Position numbers and translations under genes: made by a program. A model generated the notes under the pieces. It searched no databases, was not told where the DNA came from, and worked only from the letters and a program-made list of their open reading frames with translations. From NCBI GenBank assembly GCA_963717935.1, contig CAVQXP010000004.1, forward strand, positions 640,001 through 704,000: DNA of 64,000 bases. Direction: 5' to 3'. This stretch comes from Candidatus Eiseniibacteriota bacterium. Its GTDB lineage: Bacteria; Eisenbacteria; RBG-16-71-46. Below are positions 2,786-15,472 of the stretch, one piece after another (within the stretch, counting starts at the first letter, position 1; the number at the start of each line of letters is the position of its first letter).

Positions 2786-4363
2786 ATGGCCCACATGGGC
2801 GATGTTTTCGAAGGCAGGACACTGGATACGGCGGTGACAAAGGGCCTGGACGCGCTGGGCCTCTCCCGCGCTGAAGTGATGATCACCATCCTCGAAGAGG
2901 GCTCGGGCGGATTTCTCGGCATCGGAGCGCGGCCCTACAGGGTGCGGATGATGCGGCGCCCCGGTGGCCCCCCCCTCCTGGATGCCGACGAACGGAGCCG
3001 TCGCGGAGCGGGGCGTGGCCGCCGCGATCGTGAGCGTGGAGCGACCACGGGACGCCCGGGGGAAGGAAGCCGCGGGTCCGGGGAGCGGCGCGATCGGCCG
3101 CGCGACCGGGGCGATGAGCGCAAGCGTGGCGAGCCGCGGCCGGAGCGTTCCGCCGAGCGCGGCGAGCGGCGGCCGGAGCGTTCCGCCGAACGTGGTGAGC
3201 GGCGGCCGGAGCGTTCCGCCGAACGCGACGAGCGGCGGCCGGAGCGTTCCGCCGAGCGGGGCGAGCGGCAGCCGAAGCGTTCCACCGAACGCGACGAGCG
3301 GCGGCCGGAGCGTTCCGCCGAGCGGGGTGAGCGGCGGCCGGAGCGTTCCGCCGAACGTGGCGAGCGGCGGCCGGAGCGTTCCGCCGAACGCGACGAGCGG
3401 CAGCCGGAGCGTTTCACCGAGCGCGACGAGCGGTGGCCGGAGCGTTCTGCGGAGCGCGACGAACGGCGTGGGGACCGTCCAGCTCCTCCGGAAGTCCAGG
3501 GCCCCGGAGCCGAAGCTCAAGGTGCGGGTGATCTCGACGGTGGCGAGGACCGCCGTCGTCGCCGCCGTGGCCGTCGGGGTGGGCGTCGCCGCCACGGTGA
3601 GGGTGCGGAGGGCCGGAGCGAGGCCGGGTTCTCGCCGCGCGAGTCCTCCGAGGAGCGTGGACCTGTTCATGAGGATCTCCCGGCGGAACGCGCCCCGGTC
3701 CACGATGAGTGGCCCATGGAGCGCGAGGTCTACGACGAACCGCCCGCTGTCCAGGTGGAGACGGCCGAGGCGCCGGAGCGCTTCGAGCCGCCGGTGCGCC
3801 GTGAGCCGCTGGAGCGCCCTGCGCGCGATCTCCCCCGCGAACCACGTCCCGAGACGTTCGACGGCCCCGGCCTCTCGGCCGACGAGTTGATCGCCCAGAG
3901 CACGCGCGTGACCGGGGATCTCCTCAAGGCCATGGGTTTTGAAGCCAAGATCAGCGCCACGGTGGACGGCAACCACGTGGATGTCACGGCAGAGGTCGCA
4001 ACGGACGAGGAACTGCTCACCGGCCGCAAGGGCGAGGTGAGGCAGGCCCTGCAGCACCTGCTCAATCGCATCCTCAACCGGGGCGAGGTCAGCCGCTACC
4101 ACCTGCAGCTCGAGATCAATGATTTCTGGAAGCGGCGCGAGGAGGAGTTGCGCGACCTGGCCCGCTCGCTGGCGGACGAGGCGATCGCCAGCGGTGGCGA
4201 GGCGGTGACCGAGTACCTGAACTCGCAGGAGCGGCGCATCGTCCACGTCACGCTCCGCGAGGACGCCCGCGTGAAGACCTATGCCCTGGGCACGGGCATG
4301 ATCAAACGCGTTGCGATCGCGCCGGCCGATTTCGAAGGCGGCCCGAGAGACGAGAGCGACTAG
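2786..4363 (+). CDS. khpB: Jag/KhpB (EloR) RNA-binding protein: Jag_N, long charged linker, KH, R3H
   Basis: Jag_N (EEGSGGFLGIGARP), KH (LTGRKGEVRQALQHLLN), R3H (ERRIVH); follows yidC; start could be 2795. Confidence 0.9.
   Translation: MAHMGDVFEGRTLDTAVTKGLDALGLSRAEVMITILEEGSGGFLGIGARPYRVRMMRRPGGPPLLDADERSRRGAGRGRRDRERGATTGRPGEGSRGSGERRDRPRDRGDERKRGEPRPERSAERGERRPERSAERGERRPERSAERDERRPERSAERGERQPKRSTERDERRPERSAERGERRPERSAERGERRPERSAERDERQPERFTERDERWPERSAERDERRGDRPAPPEVQGPGAEAQGAGDLDGGEDRRRRRRGRRGGRRRHGEGAEGRSEAGFSPRESSEERGPVHEDLPAERAPVHDEWPMEREVYDEPPAVQVETAEAPERFEPPVRREPLERPARDLPREPRPETFDGPGLSADELIAQSTRVTGDLLKAMGFEAKISATVDGNHVDVTAEVATDEELLTGRKGEVRQALQHLLNRILNRGEVSRYHLQLEINDFWKRREEELRDLARSLADEAIASGGEAVTEYLNSQERRIVHVTLREDARVKTYALGTGMIKRVAIAPADFEGGPRDESD
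3131..3460 (+). repeat. 10 x 33-bp in-frame tandem repeat encoding ERRPERSAER[G/D]
   Basis: Units such as gagcggcggccggagcgttccgccgaacgcgac read directly. Confidence 0.95.
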
Positions 4364-4430: not shown

Positions 4431-5888
4431 ATGCTCGACCTCGACGACACCATCGCCGCCATCGCCACGGCCACCGGGGCCGCTGGCCTCGCGGTGGTGC
4501 GCGTGAGCGGTTCCTCCGCGCTCACCATCGCGGACGCGGTGTTCGAGGGCGCGCGGTTGTCGGAGGCGCCCTGCCACACGCTCCACCATGGCTGGGCCGC
4601 GTGGCCGGAGGCCGCGCAGGGATCCCGGGCGGACGGCCACCCGGTCGCGGGCCGCCCGGCATCCGCCGCTCCGGCCGGGCCGGCACGGGCGCCCCGTGCC
4701 CGGCTCGACGAGGTGGTCGCCGCCGTGTTCCGCGCTCCGCGCTCGTACACGCGCCAGGATGTGGTCGAGCTTTCCTGCCACGGCGGAGCGCTCTCCGCCG
4801 GGCGCGTGCTTGCGGCGTTGCTTGCGGCCGGGGCGCGTCCGGCGCGTCCCGGCGAGTTCACGTTGCGCGCCTTCCTCAACGGACGGCTCGATCTGACCCA
4901 GGCCGAGGCGGTGGCCGACCTCATCCACGCCGAGACGGAAGGGGCGCACGCGCTGGCGCTGGCGCAGTTGCGCGGCGAGCTCTCGCGGCAGCTCGCCACG
5001 ATCGCCGAGGCCCTGCGCGACGCCGTGACCGAGGTCGAGGCGCGCGTGGACTTCGCCGAGGACGTGGGGGGCGTCGAGGTGCCCGGGCACGTCCTCGACC
5101 GGATCATCGGGGCCGGGTCCGCGCTCACCGCGCTCCTCGAGGGCGCGGCCTACGGACGCGCGCTGCGCGAGGGCGTGCGGGTCGCCCTGGTCGGGCGGCC
5201 CAACGTGGGCAAGTCGTCGCTCTTCAACGCGCTCGTGGACGAGCGGCGCGCGATCGTGACCCCGGTTCCGGGGACGACGCGCGACCTGGTGAGCGAGGCG
5301 ATCGAGGTGGCCGGCGTGCGCGTGACGCTCGCCGATACGGCGGGCCTGCGCGAAGGCGGCGACGAGGCCGAGAGCGAAGGCGTGGCCCGCGCGCGCGCGG
5401 CGCTCGAGGAGAGCGCGGTCGTGCTGTGGGTCGTGGACGCCTCGGCGCCGCTGGACGCGGAGGACCTGCGAATCGCCGCGCGGCTCGCGGACCGCCGTGT
5501 GATCCTCGCGCTGAACAAGTGCGACCTGCCGGGCGTCGTGGAGGTCCGCGCGATCGAGGCGTCGCTCGGCGCCGGGCCCTTTGCGACGGTCACGACCTCC
5601 GCGACCCGGGGCGACGGGATCGCGGAGCTGAAATCGGCGCTGGGACGGCTGTTCGCGGGAGCGGGCGGGTTCGCAGGCGTGGTCGCCAACCCCCGCCACG
5701 CAGAGGCCCTCGGGCGTGCGCGGGAGGCCCTCGGGCGCGCGCGTGCGGTGGCCGTGGATGGCGCGCCCGGGGAGATCGTGTCGCTCGAGTTGCACGAGGC
5801 ACTCCAGGCCATCGGCGAGGTGACGGGCGAGGCGGTGGACGAGGATCTGCTCGAGCGCATCTTCAGCCGCTTCTGCATCGGCAAATGA
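4431..5888 (+). CDS. mnmE: tRNA modification GTPase MnmE
   Basis: DTIAAIAT, GEFTLRAFLNGRLDL, GRPNVGKSSL, PGTTRD, DTAG, NKCD, C-terminal IFSRFCIGK; ggag RBS before ATG 4431. Confidence 0.97.
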   Translation: MLDLDDTIAAIATATGAAGLAVVRVSGSSALTIADAVFEGARLSEAPCHTLHHGWAAWPEAAQGSRADGHPVAGRPASAAPAGPARAPRARLDEVVAAVFRAPRSYTRQDVVELSCHGGALSAGRVLAALLAAGARPARPGEFTLRAFLNGRLDLTQAEAVADLIHAETEGAHALALAQLRGELSRQLATIAEALRDAVTEVEARVDFAEDVGGVEVPGHVLDRIIGAGSALTALLEGAAYGRALREGVRVALVGRPNVGKSSLFNALVDERRAIVTPVPGTTRDLVSEAIEVAGVRVTLADTAGLREGGDEAESEGVARARAALEESAVVLWVVDASAPLDAEDLRIAARLADRRVILALNKCDLPGVVEVRAIEASLGAGPFATVTTSATRGDGIAELKSALGRLFAGAGGFAGVVANPRHAEALGRAREALGRARAVAVDGAPGEIVSLELHEALQAIGEVTGEAVDEDLLERIFSRFCIGK

Positions 5889-7867
5889 GCGCGTTCGACG
5901 TGGTGGTGGTGGGCGCGGGACACGCCGGCTGCGAGGCGGCCGCGGTGTGTGCGCGACTCGGGCTGCGCACCGCGCTCGTGAGCGCGGACCCCGGTGGCAC
6001 CGCGCGCATGTCGTGCAATCCGGCCATCGGTGGCATCGCCAAGGGGCACATGGTCCGGGAGTTGGACGCGCTCGGCGGCCTGATGGGGCTCGCGACGGAC
6101 CGCGCGGGCATCCAGTTCCGGATGCTCAACCGCGGCCGCGGCCCGGCCGTCTGGTCGCCGCGCGCACAGTGCGACAAGGCCCGCTACACGCTCGAGATGG
6201 CACGGTTGCTCGAGGGCGTCGTCGGGCTCGAGCGCGTGACCGGCGTGGTGGAGCGCGTGCTGCTCGAGCGCGGCGCGGTCGCGGCAGTGGAGCTCGCCGG
6301 CGGGCGGCGGTTGCGGTGCCGGGCGGCCGTCGTCACGCCCGGCACGTTCCTCGACGCGCTCATCCACATCGGTCCGCGCAAGTCCGAAGGCGGGCGCCTC
6401 GGGGAGCACGCTTCACGGGCGCTGAGCGAGAGTCTCGCCGCGCTCGGGCTCGAGCGCGGGCGCCTCAAGACCGGCACGCCGCCGCGCCTCCACCGCGACT
6501 CGATCGACTGGGATGCGCTGAAGCCGCAGCACGGCGACGAGCCGCCCGTGCCGTTCTCGCACTGGACGGAGACTCTCGAGGTCGAGCAGGTCCCGTGCTG
6601 GCTCACCCGCACCAACGCCCGCACGCACGAGGTCATCCGCGCCAACCTGCGACACTCGCCGCTCTTCTCGGGCGAGATCCGCGGACGTGGGCCGCGGTAC
6701 TGCCCGTCGATCGAGGACAAGGTGGTGCGGTTCCCGGGGAACGCGTCCCACCAGATCTTCCTCGAGCCCGAGGGGCGGGACGTGCCCGAGATCTACGTGA
6801 ACGGGATGTCCTCGAGCATGCCCGAGGAGGTGCAGCTCGAGTTCGTGCGCAGCGTGCGCGGGCTCGAGCGGGCGGTGATGCTGCGCCCTGGCTACGCCGT
6901 CGAATACGATTTCGTGCTGCCGCACCAGCTCGCGCCGACGCTCGAGGTGAAGCGCGTGCCAGGCCTGTTCCTGGCGGGACAGATCTGCGGCACCTCGGGC
7001 TACGAGGAGGCCGCGGTGCAGGGCCTCGCGGCGGGAGTGAACGCCGCGCACCGGCTGCTGGGGCGCGAGCCCTTCGTGCTGCGGCGCGATCAGGCCTACG
7101 CGGGCGTTCTCGTGGACGACCTCGTCACGCGCGAGCACTTCGAGCCGTATCGCATGTTCACCTCGGCCGCCGAGCACCGGCTATTGCTCCGCGCCGACAA
7201 CGCCGACGAGAGACTCGCCGCGATCGGCCACGGGCTCGGTCTGCTGACGGACGGCCAGGTGGCGCGCGTGCGCGCGAAGTACGACGCGATCGAGGCGGAG
7301 GAGCGCCGGCTGGCGCGCGTGACGGTCCGGGTCGCGGCGTGCGAGGTCGCCGCCGCCGCGTTCGGGGCACCGGTGGACGACGCGGAGGAGATGACGCGCG
7401 CGGCCGGCGCCGTGGCCACGGCGTGCGATGGCGCGACGCGCGCGCCGGTGGAGGCGGCTTCCGCGGCGGTGCGGTCGACCGCGCCGGGTCCTTCCATGCG
7501 CGGTCCGGTCAGTGCCCTCGAGTCCCTTGCGCGTCCCGGGGCCACGTATCAGGGGCTGCGATCGCTCGGCGTGGCCACGGACCTGCCCGCGACGTGGGGC
7601 GAGTGCCTTGAAGTGCGTGTGCGCTACCGCGGCTATATCGAACGCCAGCGTCGCGTCGCGGCCCAATCGGCGCGGTTGGAACACCTGGAGTTGCCCACGG
7701 CGCTGTGGGCCGGAGAACTGAACGGTCTCTCCCGCGAAGCCCGCGAGAAGCTCGCGCACCGGCAGCCCGCGACGGTCGGGCAGGCCGCGCGCATCGCGGG
7801 CGTGTCGCCCGCGGATGTCGCCGTGCTTCTGGTGCACGCGCGCCGGCTCAGGAGCCCGTCCGAGTAG
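5885..7867 (+). CDS. mnmG: tRNA uridine-5-carboxymethylaminomethyl modification enzyme MnmG (GidA)
   Basis: VVVVGAGHAGCEAA, MSCNPAIGG, LKTGTPPR, GPRYCPSIEDK, GYEEAA, EPYRMFTS; ATGA overlap with mnmE stop. Confidence 0.97.
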   Translation: MSAFDVVVVGAGHAGCEAAAVCARLGLRTALVSADPGGTARMSCNPAIGGIAKGHMVRELDALGGLMGLATDRAGIQFRMLNRGRGPAVWSPRAQCDKARYTLEMARLLEGVVGLERVTGVVERVLLERGAVAAVELAGGRRLRCRAAVVTPGTFLDALIHIGPRKSEGGRLGEHASRALSESLAALGLERGRLKTGTPPRLHRDSIDWDALKPQHGDEPPVPFSHWTETLEVEQVPCWLTRTNARTHEVIRANLRHSPLFSGEIRGRGPRYCPSIEDKVVRFPGNASHQIFLEPEGRDVPEIYVNGMSSSMPEEVQLEFVRSVRGLERAVMLRPGYAVEYDFVLPHQLAPTLEVKRVPGLFLAGQICGTSGYEEAAVQGLAAGVNAAHRLLGREPFVLRRDQAYAGVLVDDLVTREHFEPYRMFTSAAEHRLLLRADNADERLAAIGHGLGLLTDGQVARVRAKYDAIEAEERRLARVTVRVAACEVAAAAFGAPVDDAEEMTRAAGAVATACDGATRAPVEAASAAVRSTAPGPSMRGPVSALESLARPGATYQGLRSLGVATDLPATWGECLEVRVRYRGYIERQRRVAAQSARLEHLELPTALWAGELNGLSREAREKLAHRQPATVGQAARIAGVSPADVAVLLVHARRLRSPSE

Positions 7868-7910
7868 TCCGAAAGCGCGGCGGGGGAATCAGTCCCGGCG
7901 TGGGCGCCGG

Positions 7911-8097
7911 TCGCGGTGCGCGGCGCGGCGAGAGACCCAGGCGTGGCGCGCCGTCCGGCGCGAGCGCCGGGCGTGGTGCGCGGTCCGGCGCGAGACCTAG
8001 GCGTGGCGCGCGGTCCGGCGCAAGCGCCGGGCGTGGCGCGCGGTCCAGCGCGGGACCCAGGCGTGGTGCGCGGTCCGGCGCGAGCGCCGGGCGTGGC
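7911..8097. repeat. About 6 x 30-bp tandem repeat between mnmG and rsmG with alternating (60-bp) unit ends
   Basis: Units gcgtgg[c/t]gcgcggtccggcgcgag(cgccgg|acccag) at 7941, 7971, 8001, 8031, 8061; degenerate unit at 7911. Confidence 0.85.
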
Positions 8098-8215
8098 ACT
8101 GGGCGAGCAGAGGCACCATGCGCTCGCCCAGTGCCACCCCCGACGCCCGCTACTTCAACGCCTGCATTCGTCGTTACGGTGTCGGGTGGCCCGGCGCGTG
8201 CTAGAGTGCGCGGTC

Positions 8216-9466
8216 ATGAGAGAGCGCCGTCCGAGAGCCAGGCCGTCGAAGGGAACCCGTCGTCCTGCAAGGGGCGCTGCCGCCACCGGTGAACGCCGTG
8301 CCCGTCCGGGCGCAGGCAAGCCGCTCCGCGCGGGCGAGCGCCCGGCGCGTCCGGGCGCGGGCAAGCCGTTTCGCGCGGGCGAGCGTCCCGCACGTCCGGG
8401 CGCGGGCAAGCCGTTCCGCGCGGGCGAGCGTCCCGCGCGTCCGGGCGCGGGCAAGCCGTTTCGCGCGGGCAAGCGTCCCGCACGTCCGGGCGCGGGCAAG
8501 CCGTTTCGCGCAGGCGAGCGTCCCGCGCGTCCGGGCGCGGGCAAGCCGTTCCGCGCAGGCGAGCGCCCGGCGCGTCCGGGCGCGGGGAAACCGTTCCGCG
8601 CGGGCAAGCGCCCGGCGCGAAGGGGATCTGCCTCTCGCGAGACCTTCGGCGCACGACCGGAAGGCGGTTCCTGGGCCCCCGAATTGCGCTCTTCACGCAG
8701 CCGGAACCGGACCGGGGCTAAATCAAGGAACACCAAGAATGAAAATGGATTAAGACGTTCGGCTCCGGCCGGGCCCGTCAGGCGCGAGCCGTCGCGGGAC
8801 ATCGGGAAGTTGCTCGACCGCCAGCCCTGGGACTCGCTCACGCCGCACCTGCTGCGTGCGGGGACGGACATCGTCGAGGTATTGCCGCGCATCAGGCGGT
8901 TCGCCGAGCTCCTGCTGGAATGGAATCGTGGCTTCTCGAACCTGATCTCCACCAGCGACGAGACCCGGCTGGTGCAGCGACACATCCTTGAATCGCTCCA
9001 GCCGGCCCACTGGATCAAGTCCAGTGGCGCCCGGCGCTGGCTGGACTTCGGTTCTGGCGGCGGCCTCCCGGCGCTTCCCCTGGCGCTCGCCGGGATCGGG
9101 GAGAGCTGGACCCTGGTCGAGTCACGAAGGAACAAGACGTTATTCCTGCGTAAGGTAATTCAGGAGTTTGGGTTGAAGAACATAGAAGTGGAGCTGGCGA
9201 GGCTCGAGTCGCTCTCTGAAGAAGCGGACCGCCTTGGCAAGTTCGACGGCTTCACGTCGCGTGCGACGTTGCGGCTCGGACCGACGCTGGCACTTGCAGC
9301 AGATTGGGTTACACCGGGTGGCCTTGCATACCTCTGGAAGGGCAGCCGGAGGGAGCAGGAGATGGCCGAGGACCGCCGGTGGAAGGACTCCTGGGATCAG
9401 GACGGCTTGTTCGACATTGATTCCGGTCAGACTGTCGTGGCGAGATTCGTCAGAAAGACAAATTGA
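8216..9466 (+). CDS. rsmG: 16S rRNA m7G527 methyltransferase RsmG (GidB) with long repetitive basic N-terminal extension; start uncertain
   Basis: LLEWN..SNLIS, RHILESL, LDFGSGGGLP, LVESRRNKTLFL, TSRA; lies between mnmG and parA. Confidence 0.9.
   Translation: MRERRPRARPSKGTRRPARGAAATGERRARPGAGKPLRAGERPARPGAGKPFRAGERPARPGAGKPFRAGERPARPGAGKPFRAGKRPARPGAGKPFRAGERPARPGAGKPFRAGERPARPGAGKPFRAGKRPARRGSASRETFGARPEGGSWAPELRSSRSRNRTGAKSRNTKNENGLRRSAPAGPVRREPSRDIGKLLDRQPWDSLTPHLLRAGTDIVEVLPRIRRFAELLLEWNRGFSNLISTSDETRLVQRHILESLQPAHWIKSSGARRWLDFGSGGGLPALPLALAGIGESWTLVESRRNKTLFLRKVIQEFGLKNIEVELARLESLSEEADRLGKFDGFTSRATLRLGPTLALAADWVTPGGLAYLWKGSRREQEMAEDRRWKDSWDQDGLFDIDSGQTVVARFVRKTN
8288..8620 (+). repeat. 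7+ x 45-bp in-frame tandem repeat encoding G[E/K]RPARPGAGKPFRA
   Basis: Read directly; in frame with the rsmG catalytic domain. Confidence 0.92.
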
Positions 9467-9486
9467 TGCGTTGATTCGTCACGCCG

Positions 9487-9502
9487 GGTTTCACGTGGAA
9501 CA
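9487..9502. promoter_or_regulatory. parS site upstream of parA
   Basis: ggtttcacgtggaaca versus consensus tGTTtCACGTGaAACa. Confidence 0.88.
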
Positions 9503-9529
9503 ATCCTCTTGTTCCGCTCAGCTCCGCGC

Positions 9530-9538
9530 TGTTATCTT
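9530..9538 (+). promoter_or_regulatory. Putative extended -10 element for parAB
   Basis: TG-t-TATCTT about 65 bp upstream of the parA ATG. Confidence 0.35.
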
Positions 9539-9603
9539 GCCCCCACACCTCCCCCGTTGACCTCAGCCAGGTGGGCAAGGAATCGGCCCCCGCACGTAAG
9601 GAA

Positions 9604-10365
9604 ATGGGACGAATAATCTCAGTTGCCAGCCAGAAGGGCGGCGTTGGCAAGACCACTACTGCGATCAATCTGGGCGCGTGCCTGGCGCAGGAGAGCCGGC
9701 GCGTGCTCATCGTTGATGTGGACCCGCAGGCGAACGCGACGAGCGGGCTCGGGATCAACGGCAATGACCACAAGACCACGATCTATGAGGTCCTCATCGG
9801 CCATGCGGAACTGGCCGAGGCAGTCCTCCCGACGGCGCTGGCGAACCTCGATGTGGTTGTTTCCGGGCAGCGGCTGTCCGGCGCCGAGGTCGAGCTCGTC
9901 GGGGTGATGGCGCGCGAGACCAGGCTCAAGCAGGCCGTTTCCAAGGTGCGCGACCAATACGACTACATCCTGGTGGACAGCCCGCCTTCGCTCGGGTTGC
10001 TCACCGTGAACGCGCTCACGGCCTCTGACTCGGTGCTGATACCCTTGCAGTGCGAGTACCTCGCGCTCGAGGGGTTGACGCAGTTGATTGGTGCCATCCG
10101 ATTGGTTCAGGACCACCTGAATCCTGGCCTCAGAATCGAGGGCGTCCTGTTGACCATGTACGACTCGCGGCTCAACCTTTCGCAGCAGGTCGCGGATGAA
10201 GCGCGGAAATTCTTTGCCGACCGCGTCTACCGCACGGTGATCCCCAGGAACGTGCGGCTGAGCGAGGCGCCCTCCTTCGGGAAGCCCATAGTCCTGTACG
10301 ATCCTCACAGCACAGGCGCCGAGAGTTACCGAGACCTGGCGCGGGAGGTCCTTGACCATGCATAA
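9604..10365 (+). CDS. parA: Chromosome partitioning ATPase ParA/Soj
   Basis: QKGGVGKTTT, DVDPQANAT, DSPPSLG, PLQCEY.ALEG, IPRNVRLSEAPSFG; taagga RBS. Confidence 0.97.
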   Translation: MGRIISVASQKGGVGKTTTAINLGACLAQESRRVLIVDVDPQANATSGLGINGNDHKTTIYEVLIGHAELAEAVLPTALANLDVVVSGQRLSGAEVELVGVMARETRLKQAVSKVRDQYDYILVDSPPSLGLLTVNALTASDSVLIPLQCEYLALEGLTQLIGAIRLVQDHLNPGLRIEGVLLTMYDSRLNLSQQVADEARKFFADRVYRTVIPRNVRLSEAPSFGKPIVLYDPHSTGAESYRDLAREVLDHA

Positions 10366-11221
10366 GAAGGTACTGGGGCGGGGGCTTGAAGCGTTGATAC
10401 CGATTTCCGGCACCGCAACGGCCACGCCCGAGGCTCCCCGGGGCGGAACGTCTGAGTTGCCGGTCGATGAGATCGTCGCGAACCCCTACCAGCCGCGCAC
10501 TCGTTTCGATGAAGAGGCCATCCAGGAATTGGCGGCTTCCATCAGGGCTACGGGCGTTCTCCAGCCCGTCCTCGTCCGCCACACCCCCGGCGCCAGCGGC
10601 TACCAGCTGGTGGCCGGAGAGCGTCGCCTTAGAGCTGCCATTGTTGCTGGCCTCAAGAAGATACCGGTAATCATCAAGGACGTGCAGGACCGGGAGATGA
10701 TGGAGTTGTCCCTGGTCGAGAACATCCAACGCGAGAACCTGAACCCGATGGAGGAGGCGAAGGCCTACCAGACCCTGGTCAAGGAGCTAGGACTGACCCA
10801 CGACCAGGTGTCCGAACGCGTTGGCAAACAGAGGGTCTCGATCACCAACGCGCTGCGGCTCCTCGGCCTTCCGGACGAGGTCCAGGAGATGGTTTCACGT
10901 GAAACACTGAGTGCCGGACATGCACGGGCCCTGCTCGCGATTGACAAGTCCGCGGACCAACTGGCTGCGGCGCGCTACGTCCAGAGCAGGGGATTCTCGG
11001 TGCGACGCACCGAGGCCTTCGTGCGGCGCAAGCTGCGCCGGCTGCACTCGCGGCCTCGCCCGCCGAAGCTCAGCGGGCTGCGGGAGTGGGAGGTCCGGCT
11101 CCAGCAGAAGTTCGCCACACACGTGGCGATCACGCCTGGCCGCAAGGGCGGCAAGGTCGAGTTCGAGTACTACGGGCAGGAGGATCTGGAGCGTCTCTTC
11201 GAAGCCTGGGGAGTTCTCTAG
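10358..11221 (+). CDS. parB: Chromosome partitioning protein ParB/Spo0J
   Basis: LGRGLEALI, NPYQPR, GERRLRA, ENIQRENLNP.EEA, HTH, SAGHARALL. Confidence 0.97.
   Translation: MHKKVLGRGLEALIPISGTATATPEAPRGGTSELPVDEIVANPYQPRTRFDEEAIQELAASIRATGVLQPVLVRHTPGASGYQLVAGERRLRAAIVAGLKKIPVIIKDVQDREMMELSLVENIQRENLNPMEEAKAYQTLVKELGLTHDQVSERVGKQRVSITNALRLLGLPDEVQEMVSRETLSAGHARALLAIDKSADQLAAARYVQSRGFSVRRTEAFVRRKLRRLHSRPRPPKLSGLREWEVRLQQKFATHVAITPGRKGGKVEFEYYGQEDLERLFEAWGVL
10891..10906. promoter_or_regulatory. parS site inside parB (encodes VSRET)
   Basis: ggtttcacgtgaaaca, 15/16 match to TGTTTCACGTGAAACA. Confidence 0.92.
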
Positions 11222-11291
11222 CCGAAGCTCGTCTGGCCGTGGACGGCGGCCACGGCCGCACAGATCGGCCGCATCGCGAGGAGAGAACACG

Positions 11292-11696
11292 ATGTTCCGT
11301 TCGCGCGCACCCGAGGTTGAGGAAGTTCCTGTGCCCAGCGCGCTGATCGGCGTTGGATCGAGTTTCCACGGCACCCTGATGGTTCACGGCACGCTTCGCA
11401 TCGACGGAGAATTCGAGGGGGACATCCTCGACTGCGACCGGCTCGAGATCGGCGAGCATGGTTTGATGCGGGCGGACGTCGAGGTGAAGGAGGCGGTGAT
11501 CCGCGGGCGCGTCCAGGGCAATGTCCGGGCGCTTGGCTCACTCGAGATGAAGCAGGGCGCCCACATCGAGGGCGACGTGGCGGCCGTGAACGTGGTGATC
11601 GAGACCGGCGTCTATTTCACGGGGCGCTGCACGATGCTGGACACGGGGACCGAGGGTGTCCAGATTCAGACGGAGAACACCCGCGCGCGTGGCTGA
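11292..11696 (+). CDS. Bactofilin (polymer-forming cytoskeletal protein)
   Basis: LIGVGSSFHGTL...LRIDGEFEGDI...LEIGEHG.....V....IRGRVQGNV....LE....HIEGDV....VIETG..F.G.C.M beta-helix pattern. Confidence 0.92.
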   Translation: MFRSRAPEVEEVPVPSALIGVGSSFHGTLMVHGTLRIDGEFEGDILDCDRLEIGEHGLMRADVEVKEAVIRGRVQGNVRALGSLEMKQGAHIEGDVAAVNVVIETGVYFTGRCTMLDTGTEGVQIQTENTRARG

Positions 11697-11802
11697 CCTC
11701 CTGCGTGTGGCACCGTGCCCACGGCCGCGATGGGGGGCGCCCATGCGATTCCCACGGCTCCTGCCCCCGGGATCGGCGCCCGGCTCGGACTCAAACGAGA
11801 TC

Positions 11803-13212
11803 ATGCGGCCGAGCGTCCCGCTCCTGGCGAGTCTTGCCGTCCGGCTGTCAGTGTGTCTCGTTGTGGCCTCTGTTACCTGTTGTCTTGCATGTGATTACAG
11901 TATTTCGGCCGGCCCTGATTTGGCCTCGCTCTGGATCCGCGCCCAGGTGGGTTCGTCCGAGTGTGCCACTGCCGTCCCGGACACCGCGGACATCGCGCCC
12001 CGGCCGGTGTCGCTTGCCTCGCTGCCGTGGCCGGACGGCACGCAGGTACTCCGCTTCGAGGACCTCGAAGGCGCAATCCTCGTGCGCGCGAGGCTTGTCT
12101 CGGCGTCCGGCCGTGACACGAGCGGGGTCCTTATCCTCGACACGGGCGCCGGTTTCCTCGCCCTCGACCTCGACCTCGCCCGCCTGTTCGGCGTTGCGGA
12201 CTACGCCTCGGGGGCCGCCGCGGTGGACCTGGCCGCTCGGCCGCTCGCCCGTCTCGAGCTGGGTGGGCTGCAGGTGGACCAGGTCTGGCCCGTGCTCACG
12301 GTGGACGCGGGCGTGATCCGGCGGGTCACCGGCCGGCCCGTCCTGGGGTTGCTCGGGCACGCGCTGTTCCGGGACCGGGTGGTCATGCTCGACTACCTCG
12401 AGGGCATCCTGGTCCTGCTGCCACCCGAGACGGGTCCGGGCTCGCCCTTCAGGGCCGTGGGTCTGGCCCTGGCGCCCGGGGCGGTGCCTGTCCCCTTCCG
12501 GCTGGCTGGCGACGGAAAGGTGCTCGTGAGGGCCCGGGTCTCGGGACGGCGCGGGCCGTCCGCGGAGGAGCTCACCCTGATCGTGGACACGGGGGCGACG
12601 AAGTGCGTGTTCTTCCGGGAGGCGCTCGACCGGCGCCTCCCGGGCTGGGGATCCTGGCCGGCGCTTCGAGGGCTCGGGGCCCCGACGCTCACCGGGGACG
12701 CGAGCGCCGAGCTGGTGCGTGTCCCCGGGATCGAGTTCCGCGCGCCCGGGGCGTCCGTCGCCCGGGGTGGCGTGGACGCGGCCGTGCTCCAGGGGGACCT
12801 GGGCAGGGCGCTCGCTCGAGCCGCCGGCGAGCCGGTGGAGGGTCTGCTCGGCTACTCGTTCCTGAAGCACTACCGGATCGCCCTGGACTACCCACGCCGT
12901 CTGCTCTGGCTCGACGGTTCCCGGGGCGACGTCGCGGACCGTCTCGAGGAGTATTCCCACCCCGGACTTCAGCTCGAGAGCGTGGGTGGAGAGGTCCGGA
13001 TCTTCGCGGTCGCGGAGGGGTCCCCGGCGGCGCACGCGGGGATCCTGGCGGGCGACGTGCTGGTGGCGATCGACGGCGAATCCGTCACGGACCTCGACGT
13101 CGTGGCGGTCGCGCGGAAGCTCGAGGGTGCGCCCGGAACCGCGCTCTTGCTGGGGCTGCGACGTGGTCCACGAGAGTGGACCTGTCGCGTGGTCCGCAAG
13201 CTGCTGCTCTAG
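11803..13212 (+). CDS. Exported aspartyl protease with two retropepsin-like domains and a C-terminal PDZ domain
   Basis: LILDTGAG...GLLG and LIVDTGAT...GLLGYSFL; PDZ GSPAAHAGILAGDVLVAIDG; hydrophobic N-terminus; start uncertain. Confidence 0.85.
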   Translation: MRPSVPLLASLAVRLSVCLVVASVTCCLACDYSISAGPDLASLWIRAQVGSSECATAVPDTADIAPRPVSLASLPWPDGTQVLRFEDLEGAILVRARLVSASGRDTSGVLILDTGAGFLALDLDLARLFGVADYASGAAAVDLAARPLARLELGGLQVDQVWPVLTVDAGVIRRVTGRPVLGLLGHALFRDRVVMLDYLEGILVLLPPETGPGSPFRAVGLALAPGAVPVPFRLAGDGKVLVRARVSGRRGPSAEELTLIVDTGATKCVFFREALDRRLPGWGSWPALRGLGAPTLTGDASAELVRVPGIEFRAPGASVARGGVDAAVLQGDLGRALARAAGEPVEGLLGYSFLKHYRIALDYPRRLLWLDGSRGDVADRLEEYSHPGLQLESVGGEVRIFAVAEGSPAAHAGILAGDVLVAIDGESVTDLDVVAVARKLEGAPGTALLLGLRRGPREWTCRVVRKLLL

Positions 13213-13247
13213 CCTCGCGGGACCCCCTCGACATCCCGGAAACGGCG

Positions 13248-13353
13248 TCCCGATATTTCGTGAAACAGTCGTCTATTTGGAATCCTGCAGACTGGCAACA
13301 TGATGCCGCACATATGAATTGCCGATTTGTCCAAAATCACGACATTTCGTGAA
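13248..13353. repeat. Two copies of a 17-bp imperfect palindrome TC[C/A]CGA-[T/C]ATT-TCGTGAA in a low-GC convergent intergenic island
   Basis: tcccgatatttcgtgaa at 13248-13264 and tcacgacatttcgtgaa at 13337-13353. Confidence 0.75.
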
Positions 13354-13506
13354 TAACCGACTTGAAGGGAAGTGACTGCGGGCTCTCCCGCGACCCCCTC
13401 GGAGGCGCCTCGCCCGCTCGCCGGAACGCTCGAAAGAGCACGTCCCGGCCCTGGCCGAACGTCGCTCTGCGGGCATCCGTGATGGGTCCCGTCGAGCTGC
13501 TCTTCG

Positions 13507-13965
13507 CTAGCTCGCCGCGGCGAGATCCTCGTCTGGCGCATGCAGGGCACGGAGGCGCTCGCACACCTTCTCGACCCGCATCGCGCTCACCGTCTCGACC
13601 GAATAGGGCTCGTCCCAGATCAGGTTCCCGCGCAGCCAGACTCTCAGTTCGGGGTGGGCCTGCAGGAGGGTGAGACCGGTTCGTCCCTTGAGCTGTCGGA
13701 CGGTGCCCGAGACACTCTGCGTGGGGCTCAGCCCGAGGACCAGATGGACGCGCTGCGGCGCGGCCGCGAACTCGACCAGAGTGAAGTCCAGCTCGTCACA
13801 GGTCTGCTGGATCAGGTCGCGGAGGGTTCTGACGTGGCGGTCCCTCAGCACCGGCCGGCGGCCCCGCGTACTCCAGGTGATCACGTAGTGGAGCTGGCTC
13901 CGGTAGACCGGCTCCCAGCGTCCACGCAATGCCTCATCGACCTCGGGGGCGAGATTGCGGTTCAT
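13507..13965 (-). CDS. IS200/IS605 TnpA (Y1_Tnp)-like protein, apparently catalytically degenerate
   Basis: LHYVITWSTRGRRPVL, QRVHLVL (for DHVHLL), LKGRTG, IWDEPYSVETVS fit the TnpA fold; no Tyr in the C-terminal helix; GGAGG RBS at 13973-13977. Confidence 0.82.
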   Translation of the reverse strand: MNRNLAPEVDEALRGRWEPVYRSQLHYVITWSTRGRRPVLRDRHVRTLRDLIQQTCDELDFTLVEFAAAPQRVHLVLGLSPTQSVSGTVRQLKGRTGLTLLQAHPELRVWLRGNLIWDEPYSVETVSAMRVEKVCERLRALHAPDEDLAAAS

Positions 13966-13984
13966 GTTCGTGCCTCCTGTTTGC

Positions 13985-13998
13985 TGAACATCCGTGCA
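13985..13998. promoter_or_regulatory. Candidate LexA (SOS) box upstream of the TnpA-like gene
   Basis: TGAAC-ATCC-GTGCA with C/G flanks, immediately upstream of the RBS; one mismatch to the box at the lexA promoter. Confidence 0.7.
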
Positions 13999-14103
13999 GT
14001 ACACGTACACACTTCTAGATGCCATCAACTGCCTGGGGGGTTCATCCGGTCGACCGCGGTCGCGACTCCCGGGCGGCCGGTGCCCCGGCCCCGGCCACGC
14101 GCC

Positions 14104-14703
14104 CTAGCCGCCCACGGTCCGCAGCACGCCGGTGACCACGCCCAGGATCCGGAAATCCTGGCCCTCGGTCACCTGGATGGGGTCGTATTTCTCGTTCGCC
14201 GGCACGAGCTCGATCCGGTCGGGCCGGGGCCGGTAGTACTTCACCGTGGCCTCCTCGCCGATCAGAGCCACCACGATCGCCCCGGGCTTTGCCTGGTCGC
14301 GCTGCCGGACGATGACGACGTCGCCCTCGAGGATGCCGGCGTCCACCATGCTGTCGCCCCGCACCCGCAGTGCGAACAAGTCGCTCGAGTCGCCAAACGC
14401 CTGTCCCACGTCCAGCCGGTCTTCGATGCACTCCTCGGCCAGGATGGGCTGGCCCGCCGCGACCCGGCCGATCAGCGGGACGCCGATGCCCCGCCCGGTC
14501 GAGGCCAGGCCGCAGCCCCGCGAGACCCCGCCACGGTGCTTCAGGTAGCCCGCCTTTTCGAGCATGGTCAGGTAGTAACGGACCCCGTTGGTCGATGAGA
14601 TGCCGAAGGCCTTCCCGATCTCGCGGATCGTGGGAGGCATGTCGTGCTCATGCTGGAAGCTCCGGATGTAGGACAGGATCTTTCGCGCTCGGTCGTTCAA
14701 CAT
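14104..14703 (-). CDS. lexA: SOS repressor LexA
   Basis: PPTIREIG..FGISSTNGV HTH; VAAG cleavage site; RVRGDSM (Ser); EATVK (Lys). Confidence 0.96.
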   Translation of the reverse strand: MLNDRARKILSYIRSFQHEHDMPPTIREIGKAFGISSTNGVRYYLTMLEKAGYLKHRGGVSRGCGLASTGRGIGVPLIGRVAAGQPILAEECIEDRLDVGQAFGDSSDLFALRVRGDSMVDAGILEGDVVIVRQRDQAKPGAIVVALIGEEATVKYYRPRPDRIELVPANEKYDPIQVTEGQDFRILGVVTGVLRTVGG

Positions 14704-14752
14704 GACTCGCGCCCCCGGTTGGCCTCGTCCACGATGGACGTCGACGGACGGC

Positions 14753-14782
14753 AGGTTAGTGCACAGGCGTGCAGCGTGTCAA
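14753..14782 (-). promoter_or_regulatory. lexA sigma70-type promoter with a LexA box in the spacer
   Basis: Minus strand TTGACA (14777-14782), 18 bp, TAACCT (14753-14758); palindrome TGCAC-N4-GTGCA at 14760-14773. Confidence 0.8.
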
Positions 14783-15174
14783 GGGGCGATTTCGGGCCGT
14801 AACGGCGCGGGCTCCTGCTGGCCGGCGCCCCGTGCACGGCGGCTACGCCGCGTGACGCGGGGCGACAGCGACGCGAAGCGCAGGAGGTGCACCGGGCTCA
14901 GGACGTCCATGCGCTGACGCCGCCTGGTACTCCGTGGACAGTCGCGCCCGGCGGACGCTGTCACGCTCGGCGCGGCGGAGGCGATCGCCCCCGCGGGAAT
15001 CACGACTTGCGCGTTTCCGCCGTCCGCGTCACGTGTTGGTCCGCAGATTGCGATGGGTCGAGATCGAGGTCGCGAGACCTCTGCACGAGAGGCAAGGAGC
15101 GGGGGCCGGGTCCGTGGAGGTTGGCCGCAATCGGGGGCCGGTCGGCTGAAGCGATCCGCCCCGCCACCTTGTCG

Positions 15175-15351
15175 GTCGAGCAGGGCGATCAGGCCCGGCA
15201 CCACATGACCGTGGAGCCGGGCCCCGTCCTTTATAGGGTGCGCAGCGGTCTGCCACTTCCAGCGCTGGGTGAGCCCGGCAGACCCGTTGCGCGGCAGGGG
15301 GGCTCGCAGGACTTCCCGCGCGGGCCGTTGATGAACCCCGCTGCGCTTGGC
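15175..15351 (+). ncRNA. Candidate structured RNA of unassigned family (6S-like rod or cis-regulatory leader)
   Basis: Several long stems readable by eye (15192-99/15216-23; 15240-54/15277-92; 15301-07/15320-26; closing atca/tgat and gcag/ctgc); G-U pairs favour the + strand. Confidence 0.4.
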
Positions 15352-15472
15352 GCTTCGCCGTGTGAATGGAGCGCGTCGTCGCTTCCTTGACTTCGCTCTG
15401 CGCCATCGCGAAGACTCCCCGCGCGCACCATCCGGTTCCGTGTCGTGTCCCGATCGCCTGGAGACCCCATCC

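Follow-up and report, generated by a model that had tools for sequence, protein, structure and literature searches.

A single-copy, tyrosine-less relative of IS200/IS605 transposases beside lexA: a probable domesticated SOS-regulon gene in Candidatus Eisenbacteria

In a 64,000-nucleotide (nt) stretch of contig CAVQXP010000004.1 from a Candidatus Eiseniibacteriota bacterium (positions 640,001 to 704,000; hereafter, the window), the gene lexA is followed, 138 nt downstream and on the same minus strand, by an open reading frame (ORF) for a 152-amino-acid (aa) protein related to TnpA, the Y1 (HUH) transposase of the IS200/IS605 insertion sequences (IS). This gene, which we refer to as tnpAL, has an AGGAGG ribosome-binding site (RBS) and, immediately upstream of it, a near-copy of the palindrome present in the lexA promoter (Table 1). 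The coordinates, the RBS, and a match to Y1_Tnp agree with the original prediction, made from the sequence without database searches, which had reported a TnpA-fold ORF with a strong RBS behind lexA and a lexA operator-like box, given there in plus-strand orientation, abutting that RBS.

Table 1. Features of the lexA-tnpAL locus and its surroundings, with positions in the window.
Feature	Coordinates	Strand	Remarks
lexA	14104-14703	minus	199 aa; helix-turn-helix domain, S24 peptidase domain, AAG / GDSM / VKYY motifs
tnpAL	13507-13965	minus	152 aa; ATG at 13965, stop at 13507; IS200/IS605 TnpA-derived; key residues R72-V-H74, R137, L141, H142; Tyr nucleophile gone
tnpAL C-terminal tail	13510-13533		residues 145-152
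tnpAL RBS, AGGAGG	13973-13978	minus	7 nt 5' of the ATG
Putative tnpAL operator, TGCACGGATGTTCA	13985-13998	minus	6 nt upstream of the RBS; one mismatch from palindrome
Putative lexA operator (SOS box), TGCACGCCTGTGCA	14760-14773	minus	perfect palindrome in the promoter spacer
lexA promoter, -35, TTGACA	14777-14782	minus	read from the sequence
lexA promoter, -10-like hexamer, TAACCT	14753-14758	minus	consensus TAnnnT; read from the sequence
Stem in lexA leader	~14722-14741
PDZ/aspartyl-protease gene	11656-13212		downstream of tnpAL, convergent
Origin-type cluster	5519-13212		gidA-gidB-parA-parB-bactofilin; convergent
GidB-domain ORF	7916-9466		long N-terminal extension
Tandem array	3136-3440		period 33 bp
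Tandem array	8345-8575		period 45 bp; inside the extension of the GidB-domain ORF

The product of lexA matches the NCBIfam lexA equivalog TIGR00498 (183.4 bits; cut-off, 110.95) and the Pfam families Peptidase_S24 (E = 2e-32) and LexA_DNA_bind (E = 1.9e-14). It combines a winged helix-turn-helix with a self-cleaving S24 peptidase domain, carries the AAG, GDSM, and VKYY motifs, which we take, from E. coli LexA, to be the cleavage-site and catalytic motifs, and is encoded behind a palindromic box in its own promoter, the arrangement of an autoregulated LexA. For tnpAL, the ORF list also holds a 173-aa version starting from a TTG at 14028; the 152-aa start is preferred because homologs begin at the corresponding ATG/GTG position and are mostly 152 aa long. 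GGAGG likewise precedes the start codon in those intergenic regions of relatives that were inspected.

Profile and structure comparisons place the tnpAL protein within the Y1 transposase fold. It matches Pfam Y1_Tnp (PF01797; E = 1.8e-19, 70.5 bits, cut-off 23) and the NCBIfam IS200 model NF033573 (76.4 bits; cut-off, 55), and remains below the cut-off of REP_Tyr_transpos (NF047646; 33.2 bits versus 80), the model for the repetitive extragenic palindrome (REP)-associated tyrosine transposases (RAYTs). AlphaFold modeling from an alignment of 135 sequences gave a mean predicted local distance difference test (pLDDT) score of 85.9, and the best Foldseek matches of the model are the TnpA structures of ISDra2 and IS608 (2xm3, 2vjv, and others; E = 1e-11 to 1e-8; template modeling score up to 0.81), one of the matched structures being a Y132F mutant; a RAYT structure is more distant (E = 4e-5). 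A search of the ESM Atlas returned Y1_Tnp clusters only. Several core residues (Y27, W31, R36, K93, W117, and Y121) are those of canonical TnpAs. Net charge and isoelectric point were dropped as clues, with a family median isoelectric point of 9.0 versus 9.5 in canonical TnpAs being uninformative.

The catalytic residues tell a different story from the fold. In canonical Y1 TnpA, the catalytic Tyr lies on helix D, with a Gln four residues later (Y---Q), as described in the available portion of PMC6006769. In our profile alignment to the solved TnpAs, R137 stands opposite ISDra2 Y132 and IS608 Y127, L141 opposite ISDra2 Q136, and H142 opposite H137; the helix of the window protein (residues 128-141) contains no Tyr and, hence, no Y---Q motif, and its HUH strand reads Q-R-V-H (R72-V-H74). 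Because Arg occupies the position of the nucleophilic Tyr and Leu that of the Gln metal ligand, the protein cannot form the 5'-phosphotyrosine intermediate that transposition requires. The C-terminal tail beyond this helix follows the pattern E-[DE]-L-A-A-A-S, with L148, A149, and A151 conserved in at least 96% of the sequences and with low pLDDT; whether it serves for docking or as a degradation tag is speculative.

The protein belongs to a tight and isolated family. A word-indexed search retrieved 849 relatives of nearly constant length, the best 120 of which are 63% to 94% identical to the window protein and mostly exactly 152 aa long. Among 1.84 billion 50%-identity representatives, an exhaustive profile search found only 8 at E ≤ 1e-30 (one full-length representative, fragments, and one diverged relative), after which scores fell to approximately 80 bits and to ordinary IS200-type proteins; it is this sharp drop that marks the family as tight and isolated. 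No fused or longer forms were seen among 3485 candidates, which is weak evidence. Residue frequencies were determined over 188 members, namely the protein of the window, 121 others obtained in the searches, and 66 translations from the loci described below. H74 is invariant (188/188), R137 and H142 are each present in 186 members, and W17, E18, and P19 of a new N-terminal motif in 187, 187, and 186, respectively. None of the 188 members has a Tyr in helix D, and 6 have one solely in the far C-terminal tail. The Gln metal ligand has also been replaced. By contrast, the first HUH residue (position 72) is His in 185 of the 188, with Arg found only in the window protein, P0013, and L042; the change is a single CAC>CGC substitution, and because the three carriers are separated by His-bearing sequences on the tree, it must have arisen more than once. 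The original prediction had described both the QRVH sequence and the Tyr-less helix correctly, yet its statement that both catalytic elements are lost applies to the window copy and not to the family at large: replacement of Tyr by Arg is shared by 186 of the 188 members, whereas replacement of the HUH His by Arg is restricted to 3.

The divergence from canonical TnpAs is considerable, with identities of only 20% to 28%. In a comparison set of 36 canonical relatives, scored over the same alignment columns, the Tyr is present in 94%, the Gln ligand in 75%, the strand-1 His in 97%, and the Lys and Tyr of the K-Y-R motif in 92% and 69%, respectively; all of these are lost from the tnpAL family, which has gained a G-R-W-E-P motif at the N terminus and the E-[DE]-L-A-A-A-S tail at the C terminus. 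A sister group, here called subfamily B, consists of approximately 30 Y1_Tnp proteins (P0128 and P0272-P0299) of 150 to 158 aa that also lack the Tyr and share the motif HWSPLCVSRLHYHVTW; two of them, P0275 and P0278, are encoded on contigs of 76 and 47 kb, respectively. In all 16 aligned members of subfamily B, both the first HUH His and the Tyr position are occupied by Arg or Lys, and 2 of the 16 have lost the second HUH His as well. In a quick tree, the tnpAL family (A) and subfamily B form one clade to the exclusion of canonical TnpAs (Shimodaira-Hasegawa-like approximate likelihood ratio test, 98; stem length, 1.15), so that the Tyr was lost once, before the two subfamilies split. Since that split, the metal site has been eroding, always toward a basic residue, and we infer that the old pocket still holds a DNA phosphate although its chemistry is gone.

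To place the gene in its genomic context, we scanned 185,579 species genomes with two family-specific peptide patterns and obtained 66 loci, 43 labeled as Candidatus Eisenbacteria, 17 unclassified, and 6 assigned to other phyla. In every one of the 66, lexA lies directly upstream of tnpAL on the same strand. Of the 65 assemblies, 64 gave a single locus, as did each of two complete chromosomes (sizes, 3.6 and 4.2 Mb; accessions OY970178.1 and OY970342.1), and parB is present in 53 of the 54 loci for which 3 kb of downstream sequence is available. The six loci with other phylum labels (L006, L015, L030, L044, L049, and L066, labeled Acidobacteriota, Gemmatimonadota, Saccharimonadota, or Methylomirabilota) come from one third-party assembly series and have the same lexA-tnpAL pair; the four that reach far enough show the same parA-parB neighbors, with a parA approximately 80% identical to that of the window, making the labels doubtful. 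Two loci depart from the pattern. L050 (L050:5217-6447) is a second lexA-tnpAL locus within one assembly, with several frameshifts in both genes, which suggests either an error-rich contig or a decaying duplicate. L065 (L065:6001-6421) is a decayed copy, with an internal deletion or frameshift in tnpAL and without the operator.

None of the features of a mobile element accompanies the gene. It occurs at a single locus with fixed synteny, neither tnpB nor iscB lies beside it in the window, as the original prediction had stated, and the hairpins upstream and downstream of it are unlike each other; the downstream hairpins, considered as a possible right-end relic, look instead like terminators of convergent genes. 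When 131 canonical-like TnpA queries were run against the 64-kb window and the 66 loci (686 kb), they matched only tnpAL. REP-like targets were also considered and dropped: no dispersed REP-like family was present among the top-ranked repeated 13-mers of the window, which gave only two tandem arrays.

Sequence divergence indicates that tnpAL is maintained as strictly as its neighbor. Nei-Gojobori estimates were obtained for 63 lexA-tnpAL gene pairs (1953 comparisons), leaving aside L010, L050, L054, and L065, which have missing or doubtful starts or frameshifts. The ratio of nonsynonymous to synonymous substitution rates (dN/dS) in the closest pairs is 0.02 to 0.2 for tnpAL and 0.03 to 0.22 for lexA, only the closest pairs being informative because the codon bias that goes with 72% G+C compresses synonymous distances; between the window and L001, the respective values are 0.127 and 0.129. 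Mean dN is 0.287 for tnpAL and 0.276 for lexA, and the dN values of the two genes correlate over the 1953 pairs (r = 0.82). Thus, tnpAL is under purifying selection equal to that on lexA and evolves like it and along with it.

The two genes also share an operator-like box. The lexA promoter reads, on the coding strand, TTGACA-cgc-TGCACGCCTGTGCA-c-TAACCT, and the consensus of 64 box-aligned lexA upstream regions is TTGAC-N4-TGCACG-N3-GTGCA-N-TA-N3-T, with TTGAC conserved at the -35 place and a conserved TA...T beginning one base after the box. The palindrome TGCAC-N4-GTGCA within it looks like an operator through which LexA regulates its own gene. The tnpAL box, TGCAC-N4-GTTCA (TGCACAT-N2-GTTCA), differs from it by one mismatch. 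A lexA operator is present in all 66 upstream regions with sequence (65 with GTGCA, 1 with GTTCA), counted over the loci and the window, with that of L054 found by eye and L010 having no upstream sequence. Of the 67 lexA-tnpAL spacers (66 loci plus the window), 64 contain the strict tnpAL box (61 with GTTCA, 3 with GTGCA), L008 and L019 contain it with one mismatch, and only the decayed L065 is without it; the box ends 15 to 69 nt (median, 24) before the start codon. Elsewhere in the loci, the motif matches once in 685,962 bases. In the window, TGCAC-N4-GTKCA occurs at the lexA and tnpAL sites only, against 0.16 expected occurrences; counted on both strands, the palindrome brings the tally to 3, a value reached by 1 of 100 shuffles. 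A conserved box upstream of tnpAL and the same motif in the lexA promoters are what would be expected of members of one SOS regulon. Taking the LexA boxes of Gram-positive bacteria and of Fibrobacter to be GAAC-N4-GTTC and TGCNC-N4-GTGCA, respectively, the half-sites of the lexA box resemble both. LexA has been characterized in Fibrobacter, according to the accessible text of PMC3091678. Literature searches found no paper containing this box motif string, and a paper on LexA of Bacteroidetes (PMC8565304) contains no TGCAC/GTGCA string and no mention of transposase, Fibrobacter, Gemmatimonadetes, or the Fibrobacteres-Chlorobi-Bacteroidetes (FCB) group. A simple promoter and terminator scan of positions 13300-14900 called nothing; it missed the lexA promoter because the -10 element of the latter is only TAnnnT. 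In most loci, the stretch from the lexA -10 element to the RBS contains a conserved leader hairpin, GTGCC(a/g)GGTCC-N4-8-GGACC (in L025, approximately 30 to 55 nt after the box), and the window has a different stem in its lexA leader.

In most genomes, lexA and tnpAL are separated by a terminator-like hairpin, and the tnpAL box sits behind it. In 43 of 67 spacers, the lexA stop codon and the box have this hairpin between them; it reads ACGGGAGC-loop-GCTCCCG, and a T run comes after it. It is found among L009-L066 (for example, L025:5924-5950) and is absent from the window and L001-L007. The stem shows sequence conservation and few compensatory changes, and it occurs elsewhere only once in 750 kb. 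For the window spacer, the predicted RNA fold is no more stable than those of shuffled sequences (z = 0.63). The hairpin of an IS200 left end, which acts as a terminator, holds the same place relative to tnpA, and the spacer hairpin may act as a terminator or, alternatively, be a relic or a target hairpin. Where it terminates, any promoter of tnpAL must lie within the approximately 45 nt that hold the box. As tnpAL would be transcribed either from a promoter near its box or else from the LexA-repressed lexA promoter, it is expected to be under LexA control in both cases.

The surroundings of the pair are conserved in most related loci. Downstream of tnpAL lies a convergent PDZ/aspartyl-protease gene, beyond which follow bactofilin, parB, parA, gidB, and gidA, in that order, such that lexA and tnpAL adjoin an origin-type cluster. 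The two tandem arrays of the window may encode in-frame peptide repeats, or the GidB-domain ORF, in whose long N-terminal extension one of them lies, may be over-extended. PADLOC defense models gave no match, and a search of positions 13000-15400 against Rfam yielded only a sub-threshold Pxr hit (23.8 bits; gathering score, 80), which we take as chance.

Taken together, these results provide good support for the domestication of tnpAL and for its predicted regulation by LexA, whereas its biochemical role has to be inferred. They sustain the view of the original prediction that this is a repurposed gene rather than a decaying IS: it is single-copy and linked to lexA in 66 of 66 loci, it shows the TnpA fold, its box keeps a fixed place upstream of the start codon just as that of lexA does, it is under purifying selection (dN/dS well below 1), and the loss of the Tyr is shared, with R137 in 186 of 188 members. 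The reading that we favor, with moderate confidence, is that tnpAL is a vertically inherited, single-copy descendant of an IS200/IS605 transposase that no longer transposes and acts, under LexA repression, as a binder of single-stranded DNA (ssDNA) or hairpins in the SOS regulon of Candidatus Eisenbacteria. In such a scheme, LexA would repress tnpAL through the box, and RecA-stimulated self-cleavage of LexA after DNA damage would release it. The former active-site pocket, presumably lined by R137, H74, H142, and the His or Arg at position 72, would hold a phosphate of ssDNA or hairpin DNA noncovalently and leave it uncut, and, while the SOS response lasts, the protein would act on ssDNA building up at gaps and at stalled forks. 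That positive charge is tolerated at the metal site is supported by the appearance of Arg at position 72 in 3 places on the tree and by the Arg or Lys found there in all 16 aligned members of subfamily B.

Several observations weigh against this reading. The HUH pair is kept in 185 of 188 members and H142 is nearly invariant, which argues that the metal site may still matter and leaves room for a hydrolytic activity. L065, with its internal deletion and missing box, indicates that tnpAL is dispensable in at least one lineage. The box is attributed to LexA by its place in the lexA promoter and by its likeness to the LexA boxes of Gram-positive bacteria and Fibrobacter; the simple promoter scan gave no sigma-70-type call beside either box, and inspection by eye of the aligned intergenic regions gave no convincing -35/-10 pair for tnpAL. 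The source organisms are uncultured, and the role of the protein is a prediction. A more specific proposal goes further: tnpAL may be the first of a new kind of SOS effector, a transposase fossil turned noncatalytic clamp for folded ssDNA. Its cognate site is perhaps the spacer hairpin ACGGGAGC-N-GCTCCCGTTTTT, and binding there, or to similar hairpins at stalled forks, would link the exposure of ssDNA either to read-through of the lexA terminator or to protection of forks. We put this forward tentatively and consider it rather doubtful.

The conserved metal site is also what speaks most directly for a surviving enzyme. The protein might be a metal-dependent hydrolytic nuclease of ssDNA or hairpins, with a three-His site formed by H72, H74, and H142 and with water taking the place of the Tyr, which would be induced in the SOS response to process secondary structures or damaged ssDNA. 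The near-invariance of these residues (185, 188, and 186 of 188 for the HUH pair, H74, and H142, respectively) is stronger than a purely structural role needs, and H142 adjoins the position of the lost Gln ligand. However, Arg has supplanted the first His in the window protein and in two further family members, in all 16 aligned members of subfamily B its position is Arg or Lys and two of these lack even the second His, no conserved new nucleophile is present near helix D, and we know of no HUH hydrolase that lacks the Tyr; we regard this possibility as unlikely. Still less probable, in our estimation, is that tnpAL acts off DNA as a protein-protein modulator of the SOS switch, targeting, for example, RecA filaments or LexA cleavage, much as DinI, RecX, or DdrR do, and docking through its C-terminal tail. 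Its constant place beside lexA would suit such a role, as would the conservation of a tail whose low pLDDT is often seen in docking peptides; yet fold, basic pocket, and preserved HUH speak for a role on nucleic acid, and adjacency alone is weak evidence.

Two further explanations tie the gene to active insertion sequences. TnpA active sites are assembled across the dimer, and a subunit without the Tyr could poison them, such that tnpAL might be a dominant-negative inhibitor that forms heterodimers with active IS200/IS605 transposases or competes for their end hairpins, dampening transposition when the SOS response makes ssDNA abundant. In its favor, IS200/IS605 transposition rises after irradiation in Deinococcus, as reported in the available text of PMC2806898. 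We nonetheless hold it to be very improbable. Because the window and the 686 kb of loci, to which the scan was confined, contain no canonical IS200-type TnpA, a damage-induced ssDNA or hairpin binder, the form that the original prediction had placed beside the inhibitor, fits better. Moreover, the identity to canonical TnpAs is low and the stem branch leading away from them is long, and a sequence constant across the phylum is ill-suited to an arms race with changing ISs. As for an ordinary IS200-type insertion beside lexA, active or decaying, with the box being due to chance or related to a promoter, it can claim the NF033573 score above the cut-off and the names "putative transposase" or "RayT" under which the sources list the protein. 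Against this stand the uniform synteny, the single locus per assembly, the low dN/dS, the 849 homologs of near-constant length, the complete absence of Tyr from helix D, and a box present in 64 to 66 of 67 spacers versus one background match in 686 kb; a recent transfer of a single element is further opposed by the codivergence with lexA. This explanation is hardly credible.

Compared with known systems, tnpAL as a probable domesticated SOS gene occupies a position of its own. With the TnpAs of ISDra2 and IS608, it shares the fold and domain, a similar length, core residues, and, in most family members, HUH; it differs in the Arg for Tyr and Leu for Gln replacements, in the substitution of the strand-1 His and of the K-Y of KYR, and in its new N-terminal motif and C-terminal tail. 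Unlike IS200/IS605 elements, it is single-copy and syntenic, is without tnpB and without similar left and right end hairpins, and is predicted to be LexA-controlled. Genes next to lexA that belong to the SOS response are familiar from other bacteria (yneA in Bacillus, divS in Corynebacterium, chiZ in Mycobacterium, and dinB with lexA in Geobacter), and, like tnpAL, these effectors share their operator type with lexA; they encode division inhibitors or polymerases, and to our knowledge none has a transposase fold. RAYTs, or TnpA-REP proteins, are also encoded by a Y1-fold gene present at one copy per genome and are thought to serve the host, according to the available part of PMC5581495. They retain HUH together with Tyr, however, and have REP arrays on their flanks, whereas tnpAL has no Tyr and the window has no dispersed REP-like repeats. 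Control of a transposase-family gene by a damage repressor, as predicted for tnpAL, has counterparts: LexA binds the promoters of ISCR transposases (excerpted text of PMC13393415), LexA represses the transposase gene of Tn5, and DdrO controls two transposase genes of D. radiodurans (both from the accessible part of PMC8533742), with ISDra2 transposition being triggered by irradiation (PMC2806898, as far as its text is available). Those elements are mobile and catalytically intact, whereas the nucleophile is missing from tnpAL, an immobile gene fixed in the phylum. Literature searches found no published description of a lexA-linked or Tyr-less IS200-type gene. As set out in the available text of PMC6006769, a phylogenomic survey of the superfamily kept only proteins that carry the HuH motif as well as the Y motif and deemed the rest probably nonfunctional; because of this requirement, Tyr-less clades fell outside its scope.

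Current annotation models label tnpAL "IS200/IS605 family transposase," and counts of mobile elements in these genomes are therefore inflated by one nonmobile gene. Domesticated transposases are rare among prokaryotes, and RAYT, the Y1 case that is known, retains its chemistry. By comparison, tnpAL has lost its nucleophile and has nevertheless been kept through the whole history of the phylum, at the rate of lexA and under what appears to be LexA's operator. Three questions become testable with it: what use a cell can make of a catalytically disabled HUH fold, whether ssDNA-structure binders take part in SOS responses outside the model phyla, and how an IS insertion beside a regulator joins its regulon. 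If the doubtful clamp proposal proved true, tnpAL would constitute a second, structure-sensing layer of the SOS response.

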